From the NCBI GenBank assembly GCA_964603445.1, contig CAZRUW010000099.1:1-33976 (forward strand): a stretch of DNA of 33,976 nucleotides, given 5' to 3'. A program made the translations under genes and the position numbers. The notes below the pieces were generated by a model. The model was given only the letters and a program-made list of their open reading frames with translations, made no database searches and had not been told where the DNA came from. Shown piece by piece: positions 1,335 through 25,048 of the stretch (position 1 is its first letter; every line of letters begins with the position of its first letter). This stretch comes from an uncultured Gammaproteobacteria bacterium (lineage in GTDB: Bacteria; Patescibacteriota; Microgenomatia; JAMCZE01).

Positions 1335-1706
1335 TTAACCTTTTACTTCTAATCGGGAAATCCAAATCCGCTGTAATTTATTCTTTGGCAACATCCCCTC
1401 GACGGCGTGGTAAATAACTTCTGCTGGATTTTGCTCCCTCACAGTTTTGAGGGTTTTGGTTTTCAAACCCCCAGGGTAACCGCTGAATCGGGTGTAAGTT
1501 TTAGTGGTATCTTTCTTGCCGGTTGTTTTTACCTTGGAAGCATTGGTGACCGTGACGAAATCACCACAATCCAGGCGCCGGACAAAATAGGGCTTACCTT
1601 TACCGACAAGCAGAAGCGCCACTTGCGTGGCTAACCGGCCAAGAATTTTTCCTTTGGCATCAATTTCATGTTTCTCGTGTTTAATGTCAGACAACTTAGT
1701 AATCAT
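1335..1706 (-). CDS. rplM: 50S ribosomal protein L13
   Basis: Contains KGKILGRLATQVALLLVGKGKPYF and lies directly upstream of rpsI. Confidence 0.95.
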   Translation of the reverse strand: MITKLSDIKHEKHEIDAKGKILGRLATQVALLLVGKGKPYFVRRLDCGDFVTVTNASKVKTTGKKDTTKTYTRFSGYPGGLKTKTLKTVREQNPAEVIYHAVEGMLPKNKLQRIWISRLEVKG

Positions 1707-1715
1707 ACGAAAAAG

Positions 1716-2177
1716 CTATAAATCTTTCTTTTTGACGGTTCTCTTTTTTCCTGTTTCTGCCTTCTTAACTTGGATCTCACCACTTGAATCTTTTGTCGCG
1801 TTCTTCGTGGGTGGAATCTCTACTCCTTCAACCAACTCTAGAATGACTTTCTCCGTGGTGTCGGAAAAACGCTGCCCCAGGCGAATTATTCGGGTGTAGC
1901 CGGAATTACGATTAGAAAACTTCGGAGCAACCTCCGAAAATAATTTTTTGGAAAGTTTGTCATCGCCCATGATTTTGACAACCTCACGCTTTGCCGAGAT
2001 GGTATTTTTCTTGGCAAAGTTTAAAACATGGTCAATCAAACCGGTTACAGATTTTGCTTTCGCCAGAGTCGTTTCAATTTTGCCATGGTCCAAGAGCTCG
2101 AAAACAAGACTGCGATACAGGGCTCTCGCCTGCTTCATGTTTCGACCCAACTGATTTCCAAAAACTTTATGCCTCAT
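1716..2177 (-). CDS. rplQ: 50S ribosomal protein L17
   Basis: N-terminus is MRHKVFGNQLGRNMKQARALYRSL, and the gene follows rpoA. It has a Lys-rich C-terminal tail. Confidence 0.95.
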   Translation of the reverse strand: MRHKVFGNQLGRNMKQARALYRSLVFELLDHGKIETTLAKAKSVTGLIDHVLNFAKKNTISAKREVVKIMGDDKLSKKLFSEVAPKFSNRNSGYTRIIRLGQRFSDTTEKVILELVEGVEIPPTKNATKDSSGEIQVKKAETGKKRTVKKKDL

Positions 2178-7291: not shown

Positions 7292-8578
7292 TCAGGATGA
7301 GAATTTTTCGTAAGACCTGGTGACCAGCATTGTTTCAAACTGACGGGCAGTTTCCAAAACGACAGAGACAACAATGAGAATACCGGTGCCCCCAATAGTC
7401 AGGGTGGCGACGTTGCTTATGCCCTGTACGAAAGATGGCAGAACAGCAATCAGTCCCAGAAAAACAGCCCCGGCCAAAGTGATGCGGGTAATTATATAGT
7501 TGAGATAGTTTGAGGTGGGAGTGCCGGGACGAATCCCGGGGATAAAGCCGCCGAATTTTTGGATTTCGGAGGATATTTTGGCGGGATTAAAAATGATGGC
7601 CGTGTAGAAATAGGTGAAACCGATGACCAAAAAGAAGTAGACAAGGTTGTAGACAAGGCTGCTTGGCTGGAAAAGCCGGGATAAGGCTTGGGCGGTTTGG
7701 GAGATAAAAGGATTGGGAACCTGGCTAAGGTATTGGCCCAAAAGGGAGGGAATTAAAACCAGGGAAACGGCAAAGATTATGGGGATAACCCCGGCCTGGT
7801 TGACCCGAAGGGGCAAAAAAGTTGACTGGCCGCCGTACATTTTGTTTCCCCGGACACGGCGGGCGTAAATGATGGGGATTTGGCGAGTGGCTTCATTAAC
7901 CAGAACAATGCCGGCAATAACCAGAAAACCAACCCCGGCAAAAGCCAAGAGATTTAGGAATTGCTCGCCGGTGACGACGGAAACTGTCTGGCCAACAATC
8001 ACCGGGAAGCGGCCAATGATGCCGCCAAAAATCAACATGGAAATGCCGTTGCCGATGCCGTACTCGGTAATGAGTTCCCCAAGCCACATGAGGAGAACGG
8101 TGCCGGCGCAAAGCGTGAGAATCAAAGAAATCAAGGTGATTGGTGAAAGGACGGAGATTATATTCTGGTTTTTCAAAAGAGCGTAGGTCCCCAAAGCCTG
8201 AAGAGCGGCCAGAGGAACCGTGATCATGCGGGCATACTGGTTAATTTGCCTTTGGCCATATTCCCCTTCTTTGGAAAGAGCTTCCAGTTTGGGAAAAACC
8301 ATCTGGAGAAGTTGAAGAATAATAGTAGCATTTATATAGGGGTTAAGGCCCAGAGCCATAACGGAAAAATTGGCCAGAGTGCCCCCGGAAAAAATGTCCA
8401 GAAGGCCCAGAAACTGGTTCTGATTGAAAAGCTGTTTTAAGGCCACCAGGTCAATGCCCGGTACGGGAATGTGGGCAAACAGCCGGAAGACAAAAAAAAT
8501 CAGCGCGGTGAAAATGATTCTTTTGCGCAGTTCGGGCGTTCGCCAAGCTGAGACTATTGGAGTTAGGATTTTATTCAC
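7292..8578 (-). CDS. secY: preprotein translocase subunit SecY
   Basis: 428 aa, multi-TM and SecY-like throughout. The start codon is GTG at 8576-8578. Confidence 0.94.
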
Positions 8579-8617
8579 AGGCTATATCTTAGCACAAAAT
8601 CAGGCAGGTTTTTGTTC

Positions 8618-9625
8618 TCAAATATTTTTCGGAGCATATAATGCTCCCCGCGTCTTCCCCACTTTGACTATAAGACTTTCATCCATTAGAGCTTTGAGGT
8701 CGTAACGAAGCATCCGCGGGTCAATTTGCAGAAAACGGCGGCGCAGAAAATCTAAGGAAACCAATCGGTGGTCTCTGATTGTGTCGAGCAGTTCGCGACG
8801 GCGAGGAGGAAGCAGATCCTCGTCGGTGAATCTCCTCTTAGCAATAATTTTATCTTTGGCCTTTTTTGAAGCACTGACCAGAAATTCGAGCATAAGTTCC
8901 AAAAAGGCGGTAGCGTCGGAAGCGGCAGAATCCTCAATCGCATTGTAATAGAGAGTGCGGTTTTTTTCGATTTCTTCCTCAACAACCGTCAATCCTTTCA
9001 TTGAATAACCATTTCTAGTGAGAATAGCCAGTTGTAACAGTCGTCCCACGCGCCCGCTGCCATCCACGAATGGGTGGATTTTCTCCATAGTCAGGTGGGA
9101 AAGGACAGCTCGGACTGGAATAAGTTTTTCCCTGGAACTGTTAGCATAGGCAAGAAGGGTCAGAACCAAACCGGGAACTTCGCTTGGCGGTGGCGCGTGA
9201 TAAATCAATGTACCAGCTTGGTCAAATATTCCTTCCTGACTCTGGCGAAAAATACCAGTATATTCACTCGACAGAATGTTTCTCATTGCCCTTTCGTGAA
9301 GTTTGAGAAGGTGCTTTACCGTTATTTCTCTTTTCTTCATATATGTTTGAAGTACGTCAGTTATACAATGGGTAAGATTGGCTACCTCAACTTTTTTCTT
9401 TTCCTTGCCAGTCAAATCACGGAAACTGCTTACTTGTGCCCTGGTCAGAGGATTGCCCTCCACTCGGGCAGAATATAGAGAACTTCCCAGAATTGATTCC
9501 CGGCGAAAATTTTCTTCAACTTTAACCGGAACGTTGACGGAATCAATAGTAGCTCGATTGGCTTCGAGTTCGAGTAATAGGCCGGTAATTTTCTTGGTGA
9601 GCCGGTATTTAGGAGGAATTATCAT
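8618..9625 (-). CDS. Fic/DOC-family protein with an N-terminal inhibitory motif and a C-terminal winged helix
   Basis: Fic motif HPFVDGSGRVGR, SxxxEG motif SARVEG, and a C-terminal LLDTIRDHRLVSLDFLRRRF...LRYDLKAL wHTH. I chose the ATG at 9623-9625 (MIIPPKYRL...), giving 335 aa. Confidence 0.85.
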   Translation of the reverse strand: MIIPPKYRLTKKITGLLLELEANRATIDSVNVPVKVEENFRRESILGSSLYSARVEGNPLTRAQVSSFRDLTGKEKKKVEVANLTHCITDVLQTYMKKREITVKHLLKLHERAMRNILSSEYTGIFRQSQEGIFDQAGTLIYHAPPPSEVPGLVLTLLAYANSSREKLIPVRAVLSHLTMEKIHPFVDGSGRVGRLLQLAILTRNGYSMKGLTVVEEEIEKNRTLYYNAIEDSAASDATAFLELMLEFLVSASKKAKDKIIAKRRFTDEDLLPPRRRELLDTIRDHRLVSLDFLRRRFLQIDPRMLRYDLKALMDESLIVKVGKTRGALYAPKNI

Positions 9626-9689
9626 GTCACCAAATATTTCCAGATTTCTCCAGATAATGCAATATAGATTTAGTGTTACAATCTGTCTC

Positions 9690-10139
9690 ATGGTGCATGT
9701 TGCCATCATGAAGAGGTCCTGGGGGATGATTCCCAAGATTTTGTCCGGAGAAAAGACCATTGAGAGCCGGTGGTATAAAACAAGACGAGCACCGTGGGAT
9801 AGGATAAAGGAGGGAGAAGAAATCTATTTCAAAAATTCTGGGGAAATGGTAACTATCAAAGCTGTGGTGTCCGGATTACTTCAGTTCTCGGATCTCACAC
9901 CAAGAAAAATCAGAGAGATTCTGGATAAATTCGGACATGACGACGGTATCAAGCAAGAAAAGATTCCGTATTTTGCCAAGCTCTTTGCTGACAAAAAATA
10001 TTGCCTTCTGGTTTTTCTCAAAAATCCTCGGAGAGTTAAACCTTTTGAGGTAGACAAAACCGGTTTTGGAGCAATGAGCGCGTGGATTACTGTTGACTCG
10101 ATTGTTGAAGTGATTTCCGAGATTCATTCATCACCTTAA
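9690..10139 (+). CDS. ASCH (PUA-like fold) domain protein
   Basis: Starts MVHVAIMKRSWGMIPKILSGEKTIESRWYK..., carrying the ASCH signature I..G.KT.E.R. It is ~149 aa. The only plus-strand gene; divergent from Fic across 64 nt. The track ORF's 5' extension runs antisense to Fic and is spurious. Confidence 0.75.
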   Translation: MVHVAIMKRSWGMIPKILSGEKTIESRWYKTRRAPWDRIKEGEEIYFKNSGEMVTIKAVVSGLLQFSDLTPRKIREILDKFGHDDGIKQEKIPYFAKLFADKKYCLLVFLKNPRRVKPFEVDKTGFGAMSAWITVDSIVEVISEIHSSP

Positions 10140-10314
10140 CTGATATTTTTACGACTTTTCTTATCTCCCAAAAACTTATGCGTCTTTTATCGAGGCCATA
10201 GGCATGAAATTCCGTTGTTTTAAGATCTCTCCATTCTTGAGGCCTTACACCTAACCTGAGAGCAGTAAGTGTATCAGAATGCCAAACCTGTTTTAGAACA
10301 TCCACGCCAATCAT
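10087..10314 (-). CDS. small hypothetical protein, possibly an excisionase/MerR-type HTH
   Basis: 75 aa from the ATG at 10312-10314. LRLGVRPQEWRDLKTTEFHAYGLDKRRISFWEIRK resembles the excisionase-family pattern LGVs..t.yRw...g.lpAy..G.r..f...ei. Its 3' end overlaps the ASCH 3' end antisense by 53 nt. Confidence 0.35.
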   Translation of the reverse strand: MIGVDVLKQVWHSDTLTALRLGVRPQEWRDLKTTEFHAYGLDKRRISFWEIRKVVKISVKVMNESRKSLQQSSQQ

Positions 10315-10321
10315 TGCTGTT

Positions 10322-10327
10322 ATTATA
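10322..10327 (-). promoter_or_regulatory. -10 box TATAAT placed 7 nt before the small-ORF ATG (leaderless configuration)
   Basis: The minus strand reads GTAGTATAATAACAGCAATG. No convincing -35 was seen. Confidence 0.35.
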
Positions 10328-10440
10328 CTACTTTTCTGCAAAGCATCTTATTGTGCTCCAAAATAGGGTCCGACCCTGCAAAGACACAGCCTTCCAGATA
10401 TTACGAGGTCTTTCGAGAAGTTTCGAGATATTACAAGATA

Positions 10441-10878
10441 CTATTTTTCCACTTTTCCTCCGGCTTTTTCGATTTTTTCAGCAGCACTTTTAGAAGTGGG
10501 AAGTTTGATTGTTAGAGGAATTGTTAGATCGCCGTCGCCGAGGATTTTTACTTTGGTGACTTTTTTGTCAACAATATTGGCTTCCTGAAGAGTTTTCAGG
10601 GTTACTTCAGTATTAGGTTTGAGCGGGTTGAGATATTTGACGTTAACAACGGTTGGTCCTTCACGGAAGGATTTGTTTTTGCCTTTGCCCCGCATTAAAG
10701 GCAGTCTTTTCAGCCAGGAAGCCTGAAGGGAAGAACCGGCAAATTTCAAGCCGACAGTTTCCCGGGCTTTTTGGCCTTTAGTGCCCCGGCCGGAGGTTTT
10801 GACTTTGCCGCTGCCATGGCCTCGTCCGAGACGCTTTTTGGGCCGTTGCACAATTTTGGGAAGATTGTTCAAACTCAT
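10441..10878 (-). CDS. rplO: 50S ribosomal protein L15
   Basis: Contains RLGRGHGSGKVKTSGRGTKGQKAR. Confidence 0.95.
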   Translation of the reverse strand: MSLNNLPKIVQRPKKRLGRGHGSGKVKTSGRGTKGQKARETVGLKFAGSSLQASWLKRLPLMRGKGKNKSFREGPTVVNVKYLNPLKPNTEVTLKTLQEANIVDKKVTKVKILGDGDLTIPLTIKLPTSKSAAEKIEKAGGKVEK

Positions 10879-14450: not shown

Positions 14451-14619
14451 AAACTTCCCCGATTCTACGATCGGGGTTTTCTAGAGCCCCAGTTTAATGA
14501 GGCTCACGAAAACTCCAACATTATCTGATTTTGTTTCCAGTATATTAGTCAAGGTTTTAGAAAGTATCGCCTTCATCTCCAAGCTCACGCTTGGAGTTTT
14601 CTGCGAGCCGATTTTAAAT
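14451..14619 (-). promoter_or_regulatory. structured leader element, copy A (rpsQ|rplN spacer), beginning at a -10-like TAAAAT
   Basis: It is alignable to 21376-21540. Conserved blocks are shared, and three helices have different sequences in the two copies but preserved pairing (see findings). The minus-strand TAAAAT is at 14611-14616. Confidence 0.65.
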
Positions 14620-14865
14620 TTAACTTTTGGCAGTGGCAGAGAGTACCTCGAGAACCCTAAAGTGTTTTGTTTTACTGTAGGGTCGGGACTTAACAAGCCG
14701 GACTTTGCTTCCGACCTGAATGTTGGCAATCTGGTTATGGGCAACTATCTTAGTCGTCCGCTTCAAGATTTTCTTGTACCTGGGATGGCGAAAAACATAG
14801 TTAATGGCGACGGTGACCGTCTGAGGTGTTTTATTTGAGATGACAGTTCCATCAAGAGTTTGCAT
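14620..14865 (-). CDS. rpsQ: 30S ribosomal protein S17
   Basis: Contains GTVISNKTPQTVTVAINYVFRHPRYKKILKRTTKIVAH. Confidence 0.94.
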   Translation of the reverse strand: MQTLDGTVISNKTPQTVTVAINYVFRHPRYKKILKRTTKIVAHNQIANIQVGSKVRLVKSRPYSKTKHFRVLEVLSATAKS

Positions 14866-20134: not shown

Positions 20135-21322
20135 TTAGGCAATAATTTTTGTCACGGCACCGGCCCCAACTGTTTTACCGCCTTCGCGGATGGCAAAACG
20201 CATGCCGTCCTCCATGGCGACAGGCTGGATTAATTTGACCTTCATTTTGGCGTTGTCGCCCGGCATGACCATCTCCACACCTTCCTGCAAGGTCACTTCA
20301 CCCGTCACATCCGTGGTGCGGATGTAGAACTGTGGCCGGTAACCGGAAAAGAACGGGGTGTGCCGCCCGCCCTCTTCTTTGGCCAGGATATAGACCTGGG
20401 CTTCAAACTCAGTGTGGGGGGTGATTGACCCGGGTTTGGCGATAACCTGGCCCCTTTCAACCTGCTCCTTTTCGATGCCCCGAAGCAAAAGGCCGACGTT
20501 ATCGCCAGCTTGACCTTCGTCAAGTTGTTTTCGGAACATTTCAACCCCGGTAACAACAGTTTTCTGGGTCGGTTTGAGGCCAACAATTTCGACCTCCTCA
20601 TTGACTTTAACGACACCGCGCTCAATTCGGCCCGTGACGACAGTTCCGCGTCCCTTGATGGAAAAGACGTCCTCAATGGGCATGAGGAAGGGTTTATCCA
20701 GCTCGCGAACCGGGGTAGGAATATAGCTGTCAACGGCATCCATGAGTTCCATAATGTGCTTTTCCTCTTCCGGGTCACCTTCAACAGCTTTAAGAGCTGA
20801 CCCTTTAATCACCGGGGCTTTTTCGCCGTCAAAACCATATTTAGTCAAGAGTTCCCGGACCTCAACCTCGACAAGATCAAGAAGTTCCTTATCGGTAACC
20901 ATGTCAACCTTGTTAAGGAAGACAACAATAGCCGGGACATTAACCTGTTTTGCCAACAGCAAATGCTCCCGGGTTTGAGCCATGGGACCATCAGCGGCGG
21001 AAACCACCAGGCTGGCACCGTCGACCTGAGCAGCGCCGGCGATCATGTTTTTGATGTAGTCGGCGTGGCCCGGCATGTCAATGTGGGCATAGTGTCTTTT
21101 GTCGGTTTCGTATTCGACGTGGGCGATGTTAATGGTGACGCCACGGGCTTTTTCTTCAGGAGCGCTGTCAATGTCCTCGTAATTCATCGCCTTGGCGAAG
21201 CCTTTTTTGGCGAGAACCTTAGTGATGGCTGAAGTGAGGGTAGTTTTACCGTGGTCGACGTGACCCATGGTCCCAATGTTAACGTGGGGTTTGTCACGGA
21301 TGAATTTTGCTTGATCAGCCAT
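20135..21322 (-). CDS. tuf: elongation factor Tu
   Basis: Has the GTPase motifs [18 protein letters not shown] and NKVD, and is 395 aa. Confidence 0.97.
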
Positions 21323-24146: not shown

Positions 24147-24992
24147 TTATATCTCTTTTAGAAACTTACTGAGGCAAACACCTTGCGATTTTTTGATTTC
24201 CCATTCGTCCAGATGTATTGTTTGGAAACCATGATCAGTCAAAAACTCCTCGCGCTTTTGGTCTTTTTCTTTTGCCCCCGGGATATTGTGCCAATAGGAG
24301 CCGTCGCACTCGATTAGAAGGTTTGTCCCTTTTATCTGAAAATCAGCGTGATATTTGCCAATGTGGACTTCTTGATCGAATGAAATATTTTTATTTGTTA
24401 AGTAGTCACGGACAATTTTCTCAATAGAGGTCTCACCCTTAAACCGGATATAACAGCGTCGCGAACAAAAAGTGCCCTTGCCTTTGTTTGTCTCCCAAGT
24501 TGGAAGTTGAAATTCTTTGTGGCAATTTTTACAAATTTTGGAAACATAGTCCCGTTCAAAATTATCTTTGCACACCTTGCTACAAAAAACTGCTTTAGTG
24601 GCAAAAGCGGGGGCTCTTTCCATTAATTTTTCGCACTGTTTACAAGTCAAGTGGACGTGTTTTTCTTGACGAGATTTTTGGAAGCATTCAAAGCTACAAA
24701 AGAAACCGAAACCTTGTTCAACTAAGTAGGCTTTTACTTCAAATTTCTTGCCGCATCTTTGACAAGTTTTAATCTGCTTTCTTTTTGTAGAAGAATGGTA
24801 ACAATCGCTAGAGCAATAGTTAATTTTGTGTTTTTGAAACGGCCACAAATTAATATTCTTGCCACAACCAAAACAAGTTGTCAAAACGCGACGTTTTTGA
24901 CTCTCCGATTTACATTTTCGCGAGCAAAATTTTCGGTGTCGTTGAATTTGCTCGCTAGTTAGTAAGTTAGAACAAAATTGACATTTTATCAT
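24147..24992 (-). CDS. five tandem Cys4 (TRASH/FCS-like) zinc-ribbon repeats fused to a DUF559/Vsr-like PD-(D/E)XK endonuclease domain
   Basis: There are 5 repeats of C-x2-C-x15-17-(F/Y)C-x3-C. The C-terminus is IVRDYL...YHADFQI...LLIECDGSYWHN...EKDQKREEFLTDHGFQTIHL. I chose the ATG at 24990-24992. Confidence 0.75.
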   Translation of the reverse strand: MIKCQFCSNLLTSEQIQRHRKFCSRKCKSESQKRRVLTTCFGCGKNINLWPFQKHKINYCSSDCYHSSTKRKQIKTCQRCGKKFEVKAYLVEQGFGFFCSFECFQKSRQEKHVHLTCKQCEKLMERAPAFATKAVFCSKVCKDNFERDYVSKICKNCHKEFQLPTWETNKGKGTFCSRRCYIRFKGETSIEKIVRDYLTNKNISFDQEVHIGKYHADFQIKGTNLLIECDGSYWHNIPGAKEKDQKREEFLTDHGFQTIHLDEWEIKKSQGVCLSKFLKEI

Positions 24993-25048
24993 CAAATACC
25001 AGCGTAAATCCGAAAAGAAGACGAATCAAGAAGTAATATACTACAGGT

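Follow-up and report, generated by a model that had tools for sequence, protein, structure and literature searches.

Experimental work of 2022-2026 on CccR, CbFic2 and SoFic shows that Fic enzymes of the Fic/winged-helix kind bind DNA. SoFic (Shewanella oneidensis SO_4266, or MloA; PDB 3EQX, 3ZCN and 9TCH) combines an inhibitory helix of the SxxxEG type, a Fic core and a C-terminal winged helix; it binds the 100 bp immediately ahead of its own start codon, both AMPylates EF-Tu (at T65 and also at T62) and deAMPylates it, and inhibits translation, T65 being the main site and required for modification of T62 (bioRxiv 10.64898/2026.07.09.737422). CccR, a Fic effector of Yersinia pseudotuberculosis with a helix-turn-helix (HTH) domain, represses its own promoter via 10-bp A/T-rich boxes (AGATAATCAT; PMC9755527), and the activity of Coxiella burnetii CbFic2 is regulated by DNA binding via its C-terminal HTH domain (PMC10628234). 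Here we analyse a gene of this kind in a 33,976-nt stretch of DNA (contig CAZRUW010000099.1 of assembly GCA_964603445.1, hereafter the window) from a Microgenomatia bacterium (Patescibacteria), where it lies between the ribosomal protein gene rplO and secY, together with an ASCH-like gene and a small open reading frame (ORF).

The window Fic adds a member to the SoFic-type Fic/winged-helix proteins; its candidate operator is well defined, and its position is unusual and shared across the clade. As in SoFic, the sequence predicts an inhibitory helix, a Fic core and a C-terminal winged helix, and the 100-bp region bound by SoFic corresponds to the position of a repeat array in the window. Unlike SoFic, of which it is a remote relative, the window protein has a GSG rather than a GNG loop, its gene lies inside a ribosomal gene cluster and its candidate operator consists of tandem direct repeats. 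The CccR operator is made of two inverted 10-bp boxes 26 bp apart, whereas the family of the window carries 3-8 direct repeats at 10-bp spacing; moreover, CccR is a toxin secreted by a type VI secretion system that targets FtsZ, while nothing suggests secretion for the window Fic. An inhibitory Glu, which would imply switchable AMPylation/deAMPylation, is shared with the class II enzymes CbFic2, FICD and EfFic, but those are host-directed effectors or endoplasmic reticulum and Enterococcus enzymes with other targets. EcSofic has a 47-aa downstream antitoxin, AS1 (PMC12249575); in the window, the 39 nt between Fic and secY leave no room for such a gene. A small gene near the Fic gene recalls class I FicT/FicA (VbhT/VbhA) and Doc/Phd, but here the inhibitory helix is in cis, and the small ORF is not adjacent, lacks the motif and is absent from most Fic loci. 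Finally, the ASCH-like protein resembles the ASCH amidohydrolases (E. coli YqfB, T. thermophilus TthASCH, human EOLA1 and TRIP4-ASCH) in its GKER octapeptide with invariant catalytic Lys and Glu, but it belongs to a distinct 143-aa subfamily of Patescibacteria and DPANN and falls below the Pfam threshold.

All together, we consider it probable (about 0.7) that the 1.86-kb rplO-secY gap marks an ancient break of the spc operon, inherited vertically and defining the clade, and that the gap holds three functionally independent transcription units and not a cassette.

Distribution and anatomy of the spc operon break

The family sample comprised 16 species in 13 genera, the window genome (G000) included; this family makes up its whole order within the Microgenomatia (Patescibacteria). 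The outgroup sample held one genome each from 25 other Microgenomatia families, and Fic, ASCH, secY and rplO were located in all genomes. Outside the family, the junction is as conserved as the initial annotation had taken it to be: rplO and secY are 0 to ~290 nt apart in 25 of 25 families, with no inserted gene. Within the family, it is filled or split in every assessable genome (16 species, 13 genera). An uninterrupted rplO-secY pair was looked for in the related genomes and the junction was occupied throughout the family, which contradicts a recent insertion. Its contents differ between genomes, Fic and ASCH having been lost independently of each other:

Fic and ASCH both present: G000, G002, G003, G007 and G011 (ASCH frameshifted in G011)
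Fic without ASCH: G001, G005, G006, G010 and G015
ASCH without Fic: G009 and G013
C-terminal (winged-helix) remnant of Fic alone: G008 and G012
Neither Fic nor ASCH: G004, where the junction holds a membrane protein, a SpoU methylase and a GATase
Junction not assessable: G014 (contig breaks)

According to Pfam, the junction also contains mscL in G002, G006 and G013, an mscL fragment and a SpoU methylase in G010, two ABC-2 permeases in G007 and a Bro-N protein in G012; in closer metagenomic relatives it further holds a HAD hydrolase and a PIN/NikA pair. The gap is a permissive site with variable cargo and not a recent island. G002 shows a physical split of the spc operon: rplO lies on contig C1 (184371-184799), ASCH-Fic-secY on contig C4 (297470-300295). 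Unrelated genes follow rplO on C1, and on C4 the ASCH-Fic-secY group lies downstream of mscL and an NRAMP-like transporter.

Signs of a mobile element were not found. Searches of the window yielded no tRNA and no direct or inverted repeats bounding the gap genes, the stretch matched no RNA element in Rfam, and none of the three inserted proteins matched an integrase or transposase family (Pfam, NCBIfam, PADLOC, PHROGs). The suggestion of a mobile-element remnant is at odds with these results and with an insertion as old as the order or family.

The window contains an rpoB-rpoC-str-S10-spc-alpha gene run, all on the minus strand save the ASCH-like gene. From ORF geometry, the gap between rplO and secY measures 1862 nt and contains three ORFs. 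The features in and around it are as follows:

7292-8578, minus strand: secY (Pfam SecY, 9.9e-101), first gene of the downstream secY-adk-map-infA unit
8586-8594, minus strand: predicted leaderless promoter of secY, an extended -10 element (TGCTAAGAT) 7 nt before the GTG at 8576-8578
8618-9625, minus strand: Fic gene, 335 aa (Pfam Fic, 1.9e-15), its start backed by orthologue N-termini
9630-9655, minus strand: array 1, three 10-nt units (ATCTGGAGAA ATCTGGAAAT ATTTGGTGAC), abutting the Fic ATG
9674-9682, plus strand: predicted leaderless promoter of the ASCH-like gene, an extended -10 element (TGTTACAAT) 7 nt before the ATG
9690-10139, plus strand: ASCH-like gene, 149 aa, with a start (MVHVAIMK) common to homologues
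10087-10314 (75 aa, from ATG) or 10087-10341 (84 aa, from an upstream TTG), minus strand: small ORF, no family match
10094-10450, no strand assigned: segment of ~357 nt absent from the closest relatives L046 and L048 (blastn break points)
10322-10327, minus strand: TATAAT, 7 nt before the small ORF ATG at 10312-10314, in leaderless-promoter geometry
10394-10439, minus strand: array 2, five units of a 10-nt repeat (repeat family D7), lying between the small ORF and the rplO stop, which it follows directly
10441-10878, minus strand: rplO (ribosomal protein L15; Pfam Ribosomal_L27A, 1e-14), last ribosomal protein gene ahead of the break

The gene set, order and strands, the 1.86-kb gap, the 64-nt spacer, the CCAGAT repeats and the 53-nt overlap are thus all present as the initial annotation had described them. 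Fic and ASCH diverge across the 64-nt spacer (9626-9689), the small ORF and ASCH converge and share 53 nt (10087-10139), and the 39 nt from the Fic stop to the secY start contain no ORF. The ASCH-like gene is the only supported plus-strand gene in the window, as had been stated: none of the other plus-strand ORFs that were tested belongs to a family, and two overlap the S9 and S13 genes on the minus strand. The geometry also confirms that any read-through from rplO to secY would run antisense to ASCH. At least 8 loci have the divergent ASCH-Fic pair; the spacer measures 64-135 nt, and most of these loci share a conserved block within it.

How secY is expressed downstream of such a break may be read from the promoters of the genome. 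Among 759 ORFs of at least 120 aa, 98 have TAnnnT exactly 6 nt ahead of the start codon, against ~18 per other offset, and TGn precedes it in 31 of the 98; the same genome-wide upstream scan revealed no Shine-Dalgarno peak. Leaderless extended -10 promoters are common in G000. At secY, 12 of the 14 family loci with a readable upstream region have an element of the TGnTAAGAT type 6-8 nt ahead of the start codon, and a similar geometry occurs in only ~2 of 16 other families. At ASCH, the block GAnnCAGATTGTAnCACT (opposite strand), which lies at the predicted -10, is conserved next to the gene in relatives.

We propose that genes on the opposite strand separated secY from the spc promoter and that secY would have gained a leaderless promoter of its own (TGnTAAGAT-N6/7-GTG). 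With secY so provided, the gap would have become permissive, and different genera may later have gained or lost cargo (mscL, SpoU methylase, GATase, ABC-2 permeases, HAD, PIN/NikA, Bro-N). A promoter belonging to secY itself would account for the tolerance of insertions and would weaken a functional coupling of Fic to secY. ASCH would be transcribed divergently from its leaderless extended -10 element, and the small ORF from a leaderless promoter of its own. As a separate observation, in genomes G029 (L171) and G031 (L179) of two other families the conserved C-terminal codons of rplO (GGT AAA AT and GGT AAG AT) make up a -10-like hexamer at 6-9 nt from the secY start, so that rplO may harbour an internal promoter for secY.

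The Fic protein and the repeat array upstream of its gene

By its sequence, the Fic protein is a class II, SoFic-type self-inhibited enzyme with predicted AMPylase/deAMPylase activity. The inhibitory motif S52-A-R-V-E56-G57-N58 lies in cis, and S52, E56, G57 and N58 are invariant among 21 orthologues, as are H184, D188, G189, R192 and R195 of the catalytic loop H184-PFVDGSGRVGR-195; at the Asn position of the catalytic motif, the window and 12 of 20 other orthologues have Ser, and the rest have Asn. In sequence searches, the matches among solved structures are class II enzymes (PDB 4rgl at 2.4e-20, also FICD and SoFic). The PADLOC SoFic model aligns over residues 11-332 (3.4e-41), in agreement with the initial description of a Fic protein with a C-terminal winged helix, of a self-inhibited AMPylase type as judged from these alignments. 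The NCBIfam SoFic equivalog NF046030 scores 40.9 bits against a cut-off of 550, and the PDB match to SoFic (E 7e-6) covers residues 135-293 only. The winged-helix domain, at about residues 265-335, is predicted from the HMM (hidden Markov model) alignment to SoFic together with weak Pfam matches.

In other families, Fic orthologues (37-47% identity) are solitary genes in unrelated contexts. Within the family, two independent truncations have kept the winged-helix domain alone, as an intact ORF just upstream of secY:

G008 remnant, L029 ~1594-1920, minus strand: 108 aa, start/stop-coupled to rplO (overlap TAATG)
G012 remnant, L032 333-545, plus strand: 70 aa, with two 10-bp arrays directly upstream

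Both remnants retain every conserved C-terminal residue. The ratio of nonsynonymous to synonymous substitution rates (dN/dS) was unusable because synonymous sites are saturated, and the proportion of nonsynonymous differences (pN) alone was compared: it is 0.20-0.29 between remnants and full-length copies (closest comparisons) and 0.26-0.33 between full-length pairs.

The target established for SoFic is not simply transferable to this protein, since the EF-Tu of the window (gene at 20135-21322, minus strand) carries Ile at the T65 equivalent, and so does that of each of the 14 family genomes examined, whether Fic is present or not. T62 is conserved in the family, and the residue after the T65 equivalent varies between A, S and T.

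Upstream of Fic, CCAGAT stands at 9640-9645 and 9650-9655 and CCAAAT at 9630-9635, with a period of 10 nt; the CCAGAT repeats are the reverse complement of tandem 10-nt units of approximate consensus ATCTKGnAAn. The pattern ATYTNGNNNNATYTNG is not a chance feature: 0.40 matches would be expected in the window, and the 3 that occur all fall in the stretch between rplO and secY. Arrays of 3-8 units, ending 0-15 nt before the start codon, precede Fic in every family genome and metagenomic relative that bears the gene; they are visible in the Fic spacers of 8 loci, and also ahead of the out-of-family Fic in L049 and L051. The array is present at 12 of 12 out-of-family orthologues, in unrelated neighbourhoods, and at 0 of 11 paralogues (the ~360-aa Fic of the same genomes, used as a control). 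When the 100 nt upstream of the start codon were compared with themselves at lags of 5-15, the strongest self-similarity fell at lag 10 in 26/26 orthologue loci, in 0/11 paralogue loci and in 2/74 distant class II Fic loci, the last being a control set only, drawn from an alignment-based contig search with generic peptide patterns. Identity at the orthologue loci was 0.61-0.68 at lag 10 versus 0.33-0.35 at other lags. No array was found at the Fic-less junctions of G004, G009 and G013.

These results show that the array travels with this Fic orthogroup. It is non-coding, as its period is not a multiple of three and the upstream frames are closed in relatives. Within G000 it is specific to this locus: further copies that might form a regulon were considered and rejected, the four extra degenerate matches lying inside coding regions and looking like chance. 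Array 2, after rplO, is 95% identical over its first 20 nt to the Fic-proximal array of L048.

Given the experiments on SoFic and CccR and the linkage of array and orthologue, the simplest reading is that the array is a candidate operator for the winged-helix domain of Fic itself: the gene would carry its cis array wherever it lies, and the winged helix would bind the array and autoregulate the gene. The winged-helix-only ORF of G012 with its two upstream arrays fits this operator reading, and so does the conservation of both remnants, which are no more diverged than full-length copies.

The ASCH-like gene and the small ORF

The ASCH-like protein contains an octapeptide GxKxxExR of the GKER type (G20-E-K22-T-I-E25-S-R27), in which K22, E25 and R27 never vary and G20 is conserved to at least 90%. 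Moreover, 15 of 21 close homologues match Pfam ASCH at E <= 0.01 (best 2e-5), and a profile search gave weak matches to the PH0355 and PF0455 structures. The ASCH assignment of the initial annotation is supported by the octapeptide and the homologues, the Pfam score of the window protein itself being below threshold. As to the PUA-like beta-barrel fold, TRIP4-ASCH and EF3133 appear only among insignificant Foldseek matches of its poor structural model (predicted local distance difference test, pLDDT, 58). About 2000 homologues at 60-70% identity are found in Patescibacteria and DPANN archaea. They form a distinct and very conserved 143-aa subfamily, with either unusually high cross-domain conservation or a sign of transfer; one copy (L043) lies beside archaeal ribosomal protein S6e. 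No Fic was seen in the three homologue neighbourhoods that were read.

All members of the GKER group tested so far deacetylate N4-acetylcytidine (ac4C; bioRxiv 10.64898/2026.02.27.708502, PMC6972931), and the window protein is probably an N4-acetylcytidine/N4-acylcytosine amidohydrolase, as its octapeptide suggests. A role in nucleoside salvage appears more likely than tRNA erasing, because no ac4C writer of the TmcA or TmcAL type was found in the 94%-complete genome. Neither the ASCH-like protein nor the small ORF matched a defence or phage family in PADLOC or PHROGs.

The ~357-nt segment at 10094-10450 begins with array 2, also holds the small ORF and provides ASCH with its last 15 codons. 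Compared with rplO of L046 and L048, the closest relatives, rplO of the window has a C-terminal tail that is shorter by 16 aa. The segment is unique in the genome, and by synteny an equivalent small-ORF segment exists in L170. An origin of 10140-10393 as a decayed copy of mscL, Fic or ASCH, or as a genome repeat, was considered and rejected.

A word search of 5.8e9 proteins with the small ORF returned only itself, and tblastn gave no match in 15 relatives. An exhaustive HMMER scan (1.8e9 proteins) identified one homologue, P0244, of 76 aa, with 34% identity over 70 residues (E 3.2e-4). P0244 occupies the same slot on the related contig L170, where the order is rplO, small ORF, ASCH remnant, array and Fic. 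The idea that the small ORF is not a gene was dropped once this same-length homologue in the same slot turned up. By this comparison, the small ORF appears as a real but rare gene, found in two known lineages and in only 2 of ~21 loci; its coding score, -0.03 to -0.06 per codon, is ambiguous.

The small ORF and P0244 have in common an N-terminal, HTH-like motif, W.SDT..A.RLG(V/I). Searches of Pfam, NCBIfam, PADLOC and PHROGs placed the small ORF in no family, hence not in HTH_17 or the excisionases. Its AlphaFold2 model is of low confidence (pLDDT 58.9) and all-helical, with no wing strands, and the best Foldseek match has an E of 3.1; several of the insignificant matches are HTH proteins. An HTH fold is plausible from the motif. 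Of the 75-aa excisionase/MerR-like HTH protein first described, there remains a real gene with one homologue and an HTH-like motif, while no excisionase, MerR or HTH_17 family or fold match was obtained.

Elsewhere in the window, a 282-aa ORF (24147-24995, minus strand) with a DUF559/REase_MTES_1575 (Vsr-like endonuclease) domain lies in the rpo/str cluster; with its low-GC stretch (0.35-0.39) and low coding score, it looks like a second foreign insert in a conserved cluster. A 113-aa ORF with no family match (14497-14838, plus strand) is situated in a spacer.

Competing explanations and meaning of the locus

Several points weigh against an ancient break with three independent units, one of them under its own operator. 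The persistence of the divergent ASCH-Fic pair and of its spacer block could mean shared regulation and not just descent, and related genomes are not independent samples. The window ASCH lies below the gathering threshold of Pfam PF04266 (17.6 versus 21.2 bits, E 0.0066), and its AlphaFold2 model, with the pLDDT given above, yields nothing in Foldseek at E <= 0.001. Pfam support for the winged helix is weak (HVO_A0114 at 0.061 for the window Fic, HTH_DeoR at 0.0086 for the G012 remnant). Finally, the array units resemble the extended -10 of the lineage (TGnTAnnAT), and they could be tandem promoter-like sites or an element of the 5' untranslated region.

This last point leads to an alternative that we regard as possible though doubtful: that the array consists of tandem extended -10-like promoter elements, or is an A/U-rich leader tuning Fic expression, and not a protein operator. 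Units such as TGGTAATAT and TCGTAAGAT match the leaderless consensus TGnTAnnnT of the lineage, the last unit stands 6 nt before the start codon in L049, L055, L138 and G001, and no Shine-Dalgarno signal is used in the genome. The units in the window, however, read AGAAAT and AAATAT, lack the first T of the -10 and have a spacing of 8 nt to the ATG. Moreover, 3-8 copies at exactly one helical turn, conserved across families, are more typical of cooperative protein binding, and the winged-helix-only gene of G012 retains its two arrays.

It is unlikely that Fic is a single-gene abortive-infection defence of the SoFic type and that the rplO-secY gap is a hotspot for defence or toxin-antitoxin genes. 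SoFic protects against phage (bioRxiv 10.1101/2022.05.11.491447, PMC12249575), the PADLOC SoFic model is matched over the full length of the window protein, and the variable cargo of the gap includes PIN/NikA, a Bro-N protein and, nearby, a DUF433/DUF5615 pair. Nevertheless, this PADLOC model spans the general architecture of a class II Fic with a C-terminal domain, so that a match alone shows no defence role, and the equivalog score lies far below its cut-off. Vertical inheritance of Fic at one position over 13 genera is unlike the rapid turnover of defence islands; the cargo is mostly housekeeping-like (mscL, SpoU, GATase, HAD), no AS1-like gene follows Fic, and the neighbours are ribosomal and secretion genes.

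Somewhat less likely still is that the position itself is functional, Fic modifying a component of translation or secretion (EF-Tu, SecY or ribosomal proteins) and being co-regulated with secY. In 8 genomes and in L048, Fic is the immediate upstream neighbour of secY, on the same strand and 15-82 nt away; the linkage survives the operon split of G002, no convincing terminator separates the two genes, and SoFic AMPylates EF-Tu and inhibits translation (bioRxiv 10.64898/2026.07.09.737422). On the other hand, all 14 family EF-Tu sequences carry Ile at the T65 equivalent with or without Fic, secY has its own predicted promoter, and other genes are inserted between Fic and secY in ~6 loci. In other families, the orthologues have no translation or secretion genes nearby, and the adjacency is explained by descent.

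The operator reading might also be extended, and here our expectations are low. There is a slim chance that winged helix and direct-repeat array form a self-contained, portable autoregulatory switch in which the protein would form a head-to-tail polymer on one face of the DNA. It is just as improbable that protein bound to the array at the rplO/secY cut, together with array 2, would act as a roadblock or gate to read-through, coupling AMPylation or the ATP state to the expression of secretion and translation genes. We give no better odds to the proposal that the winged-helix-only derivatives of two genera are regulators that have outlived the loss of the enzyme.

Last, it is very improbable that Fic, ASCH and the small HTH-like ORF form one toxin- or defence-like cassette or a mobile-element remnant, as the initial annotation had suggested: the recurrence of the divergent pair with its spacer block, the small ORF beside an ASCH remnant and Fic in L170 and the small partner protein AS1 of EcSofic (PMC12249575) speak for it, but five Fic-only and two ASCH-only genomes show that neither gene depends on the other, the small ORF is restricted to the two loci, the Fic orthologues and ASCH homologues outside the family lie in unrelated contexts without each other, Fic has its own inhibitory helix while by eye ASCH and the small ORF contain no (S/T)xxxE(G/N) motif, and the PADLOC/PHROG, tRNA, integrase and bounding-repeat searches were negative. 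For annotation, the terms Fic-ASCH system, toxin cassette and island should all be avoided for this locus.

Three points make the locus useful. The array is a sharply defined and comparatively supported candidate operator for a SoFic-type Fic/winged-helix protein, SoFic itself having no defined site. The clade lacks the main EF-Tu target residue of SoFic, which makes the target of this Fic orthogroup a testable question. Finally, the locus would offer a clean case in which one of the most conserved operon junctions of bacteria has been broken throughout the history of a clade, a break that was probably tolerated because the downstream gene gained a leaderless promoter.

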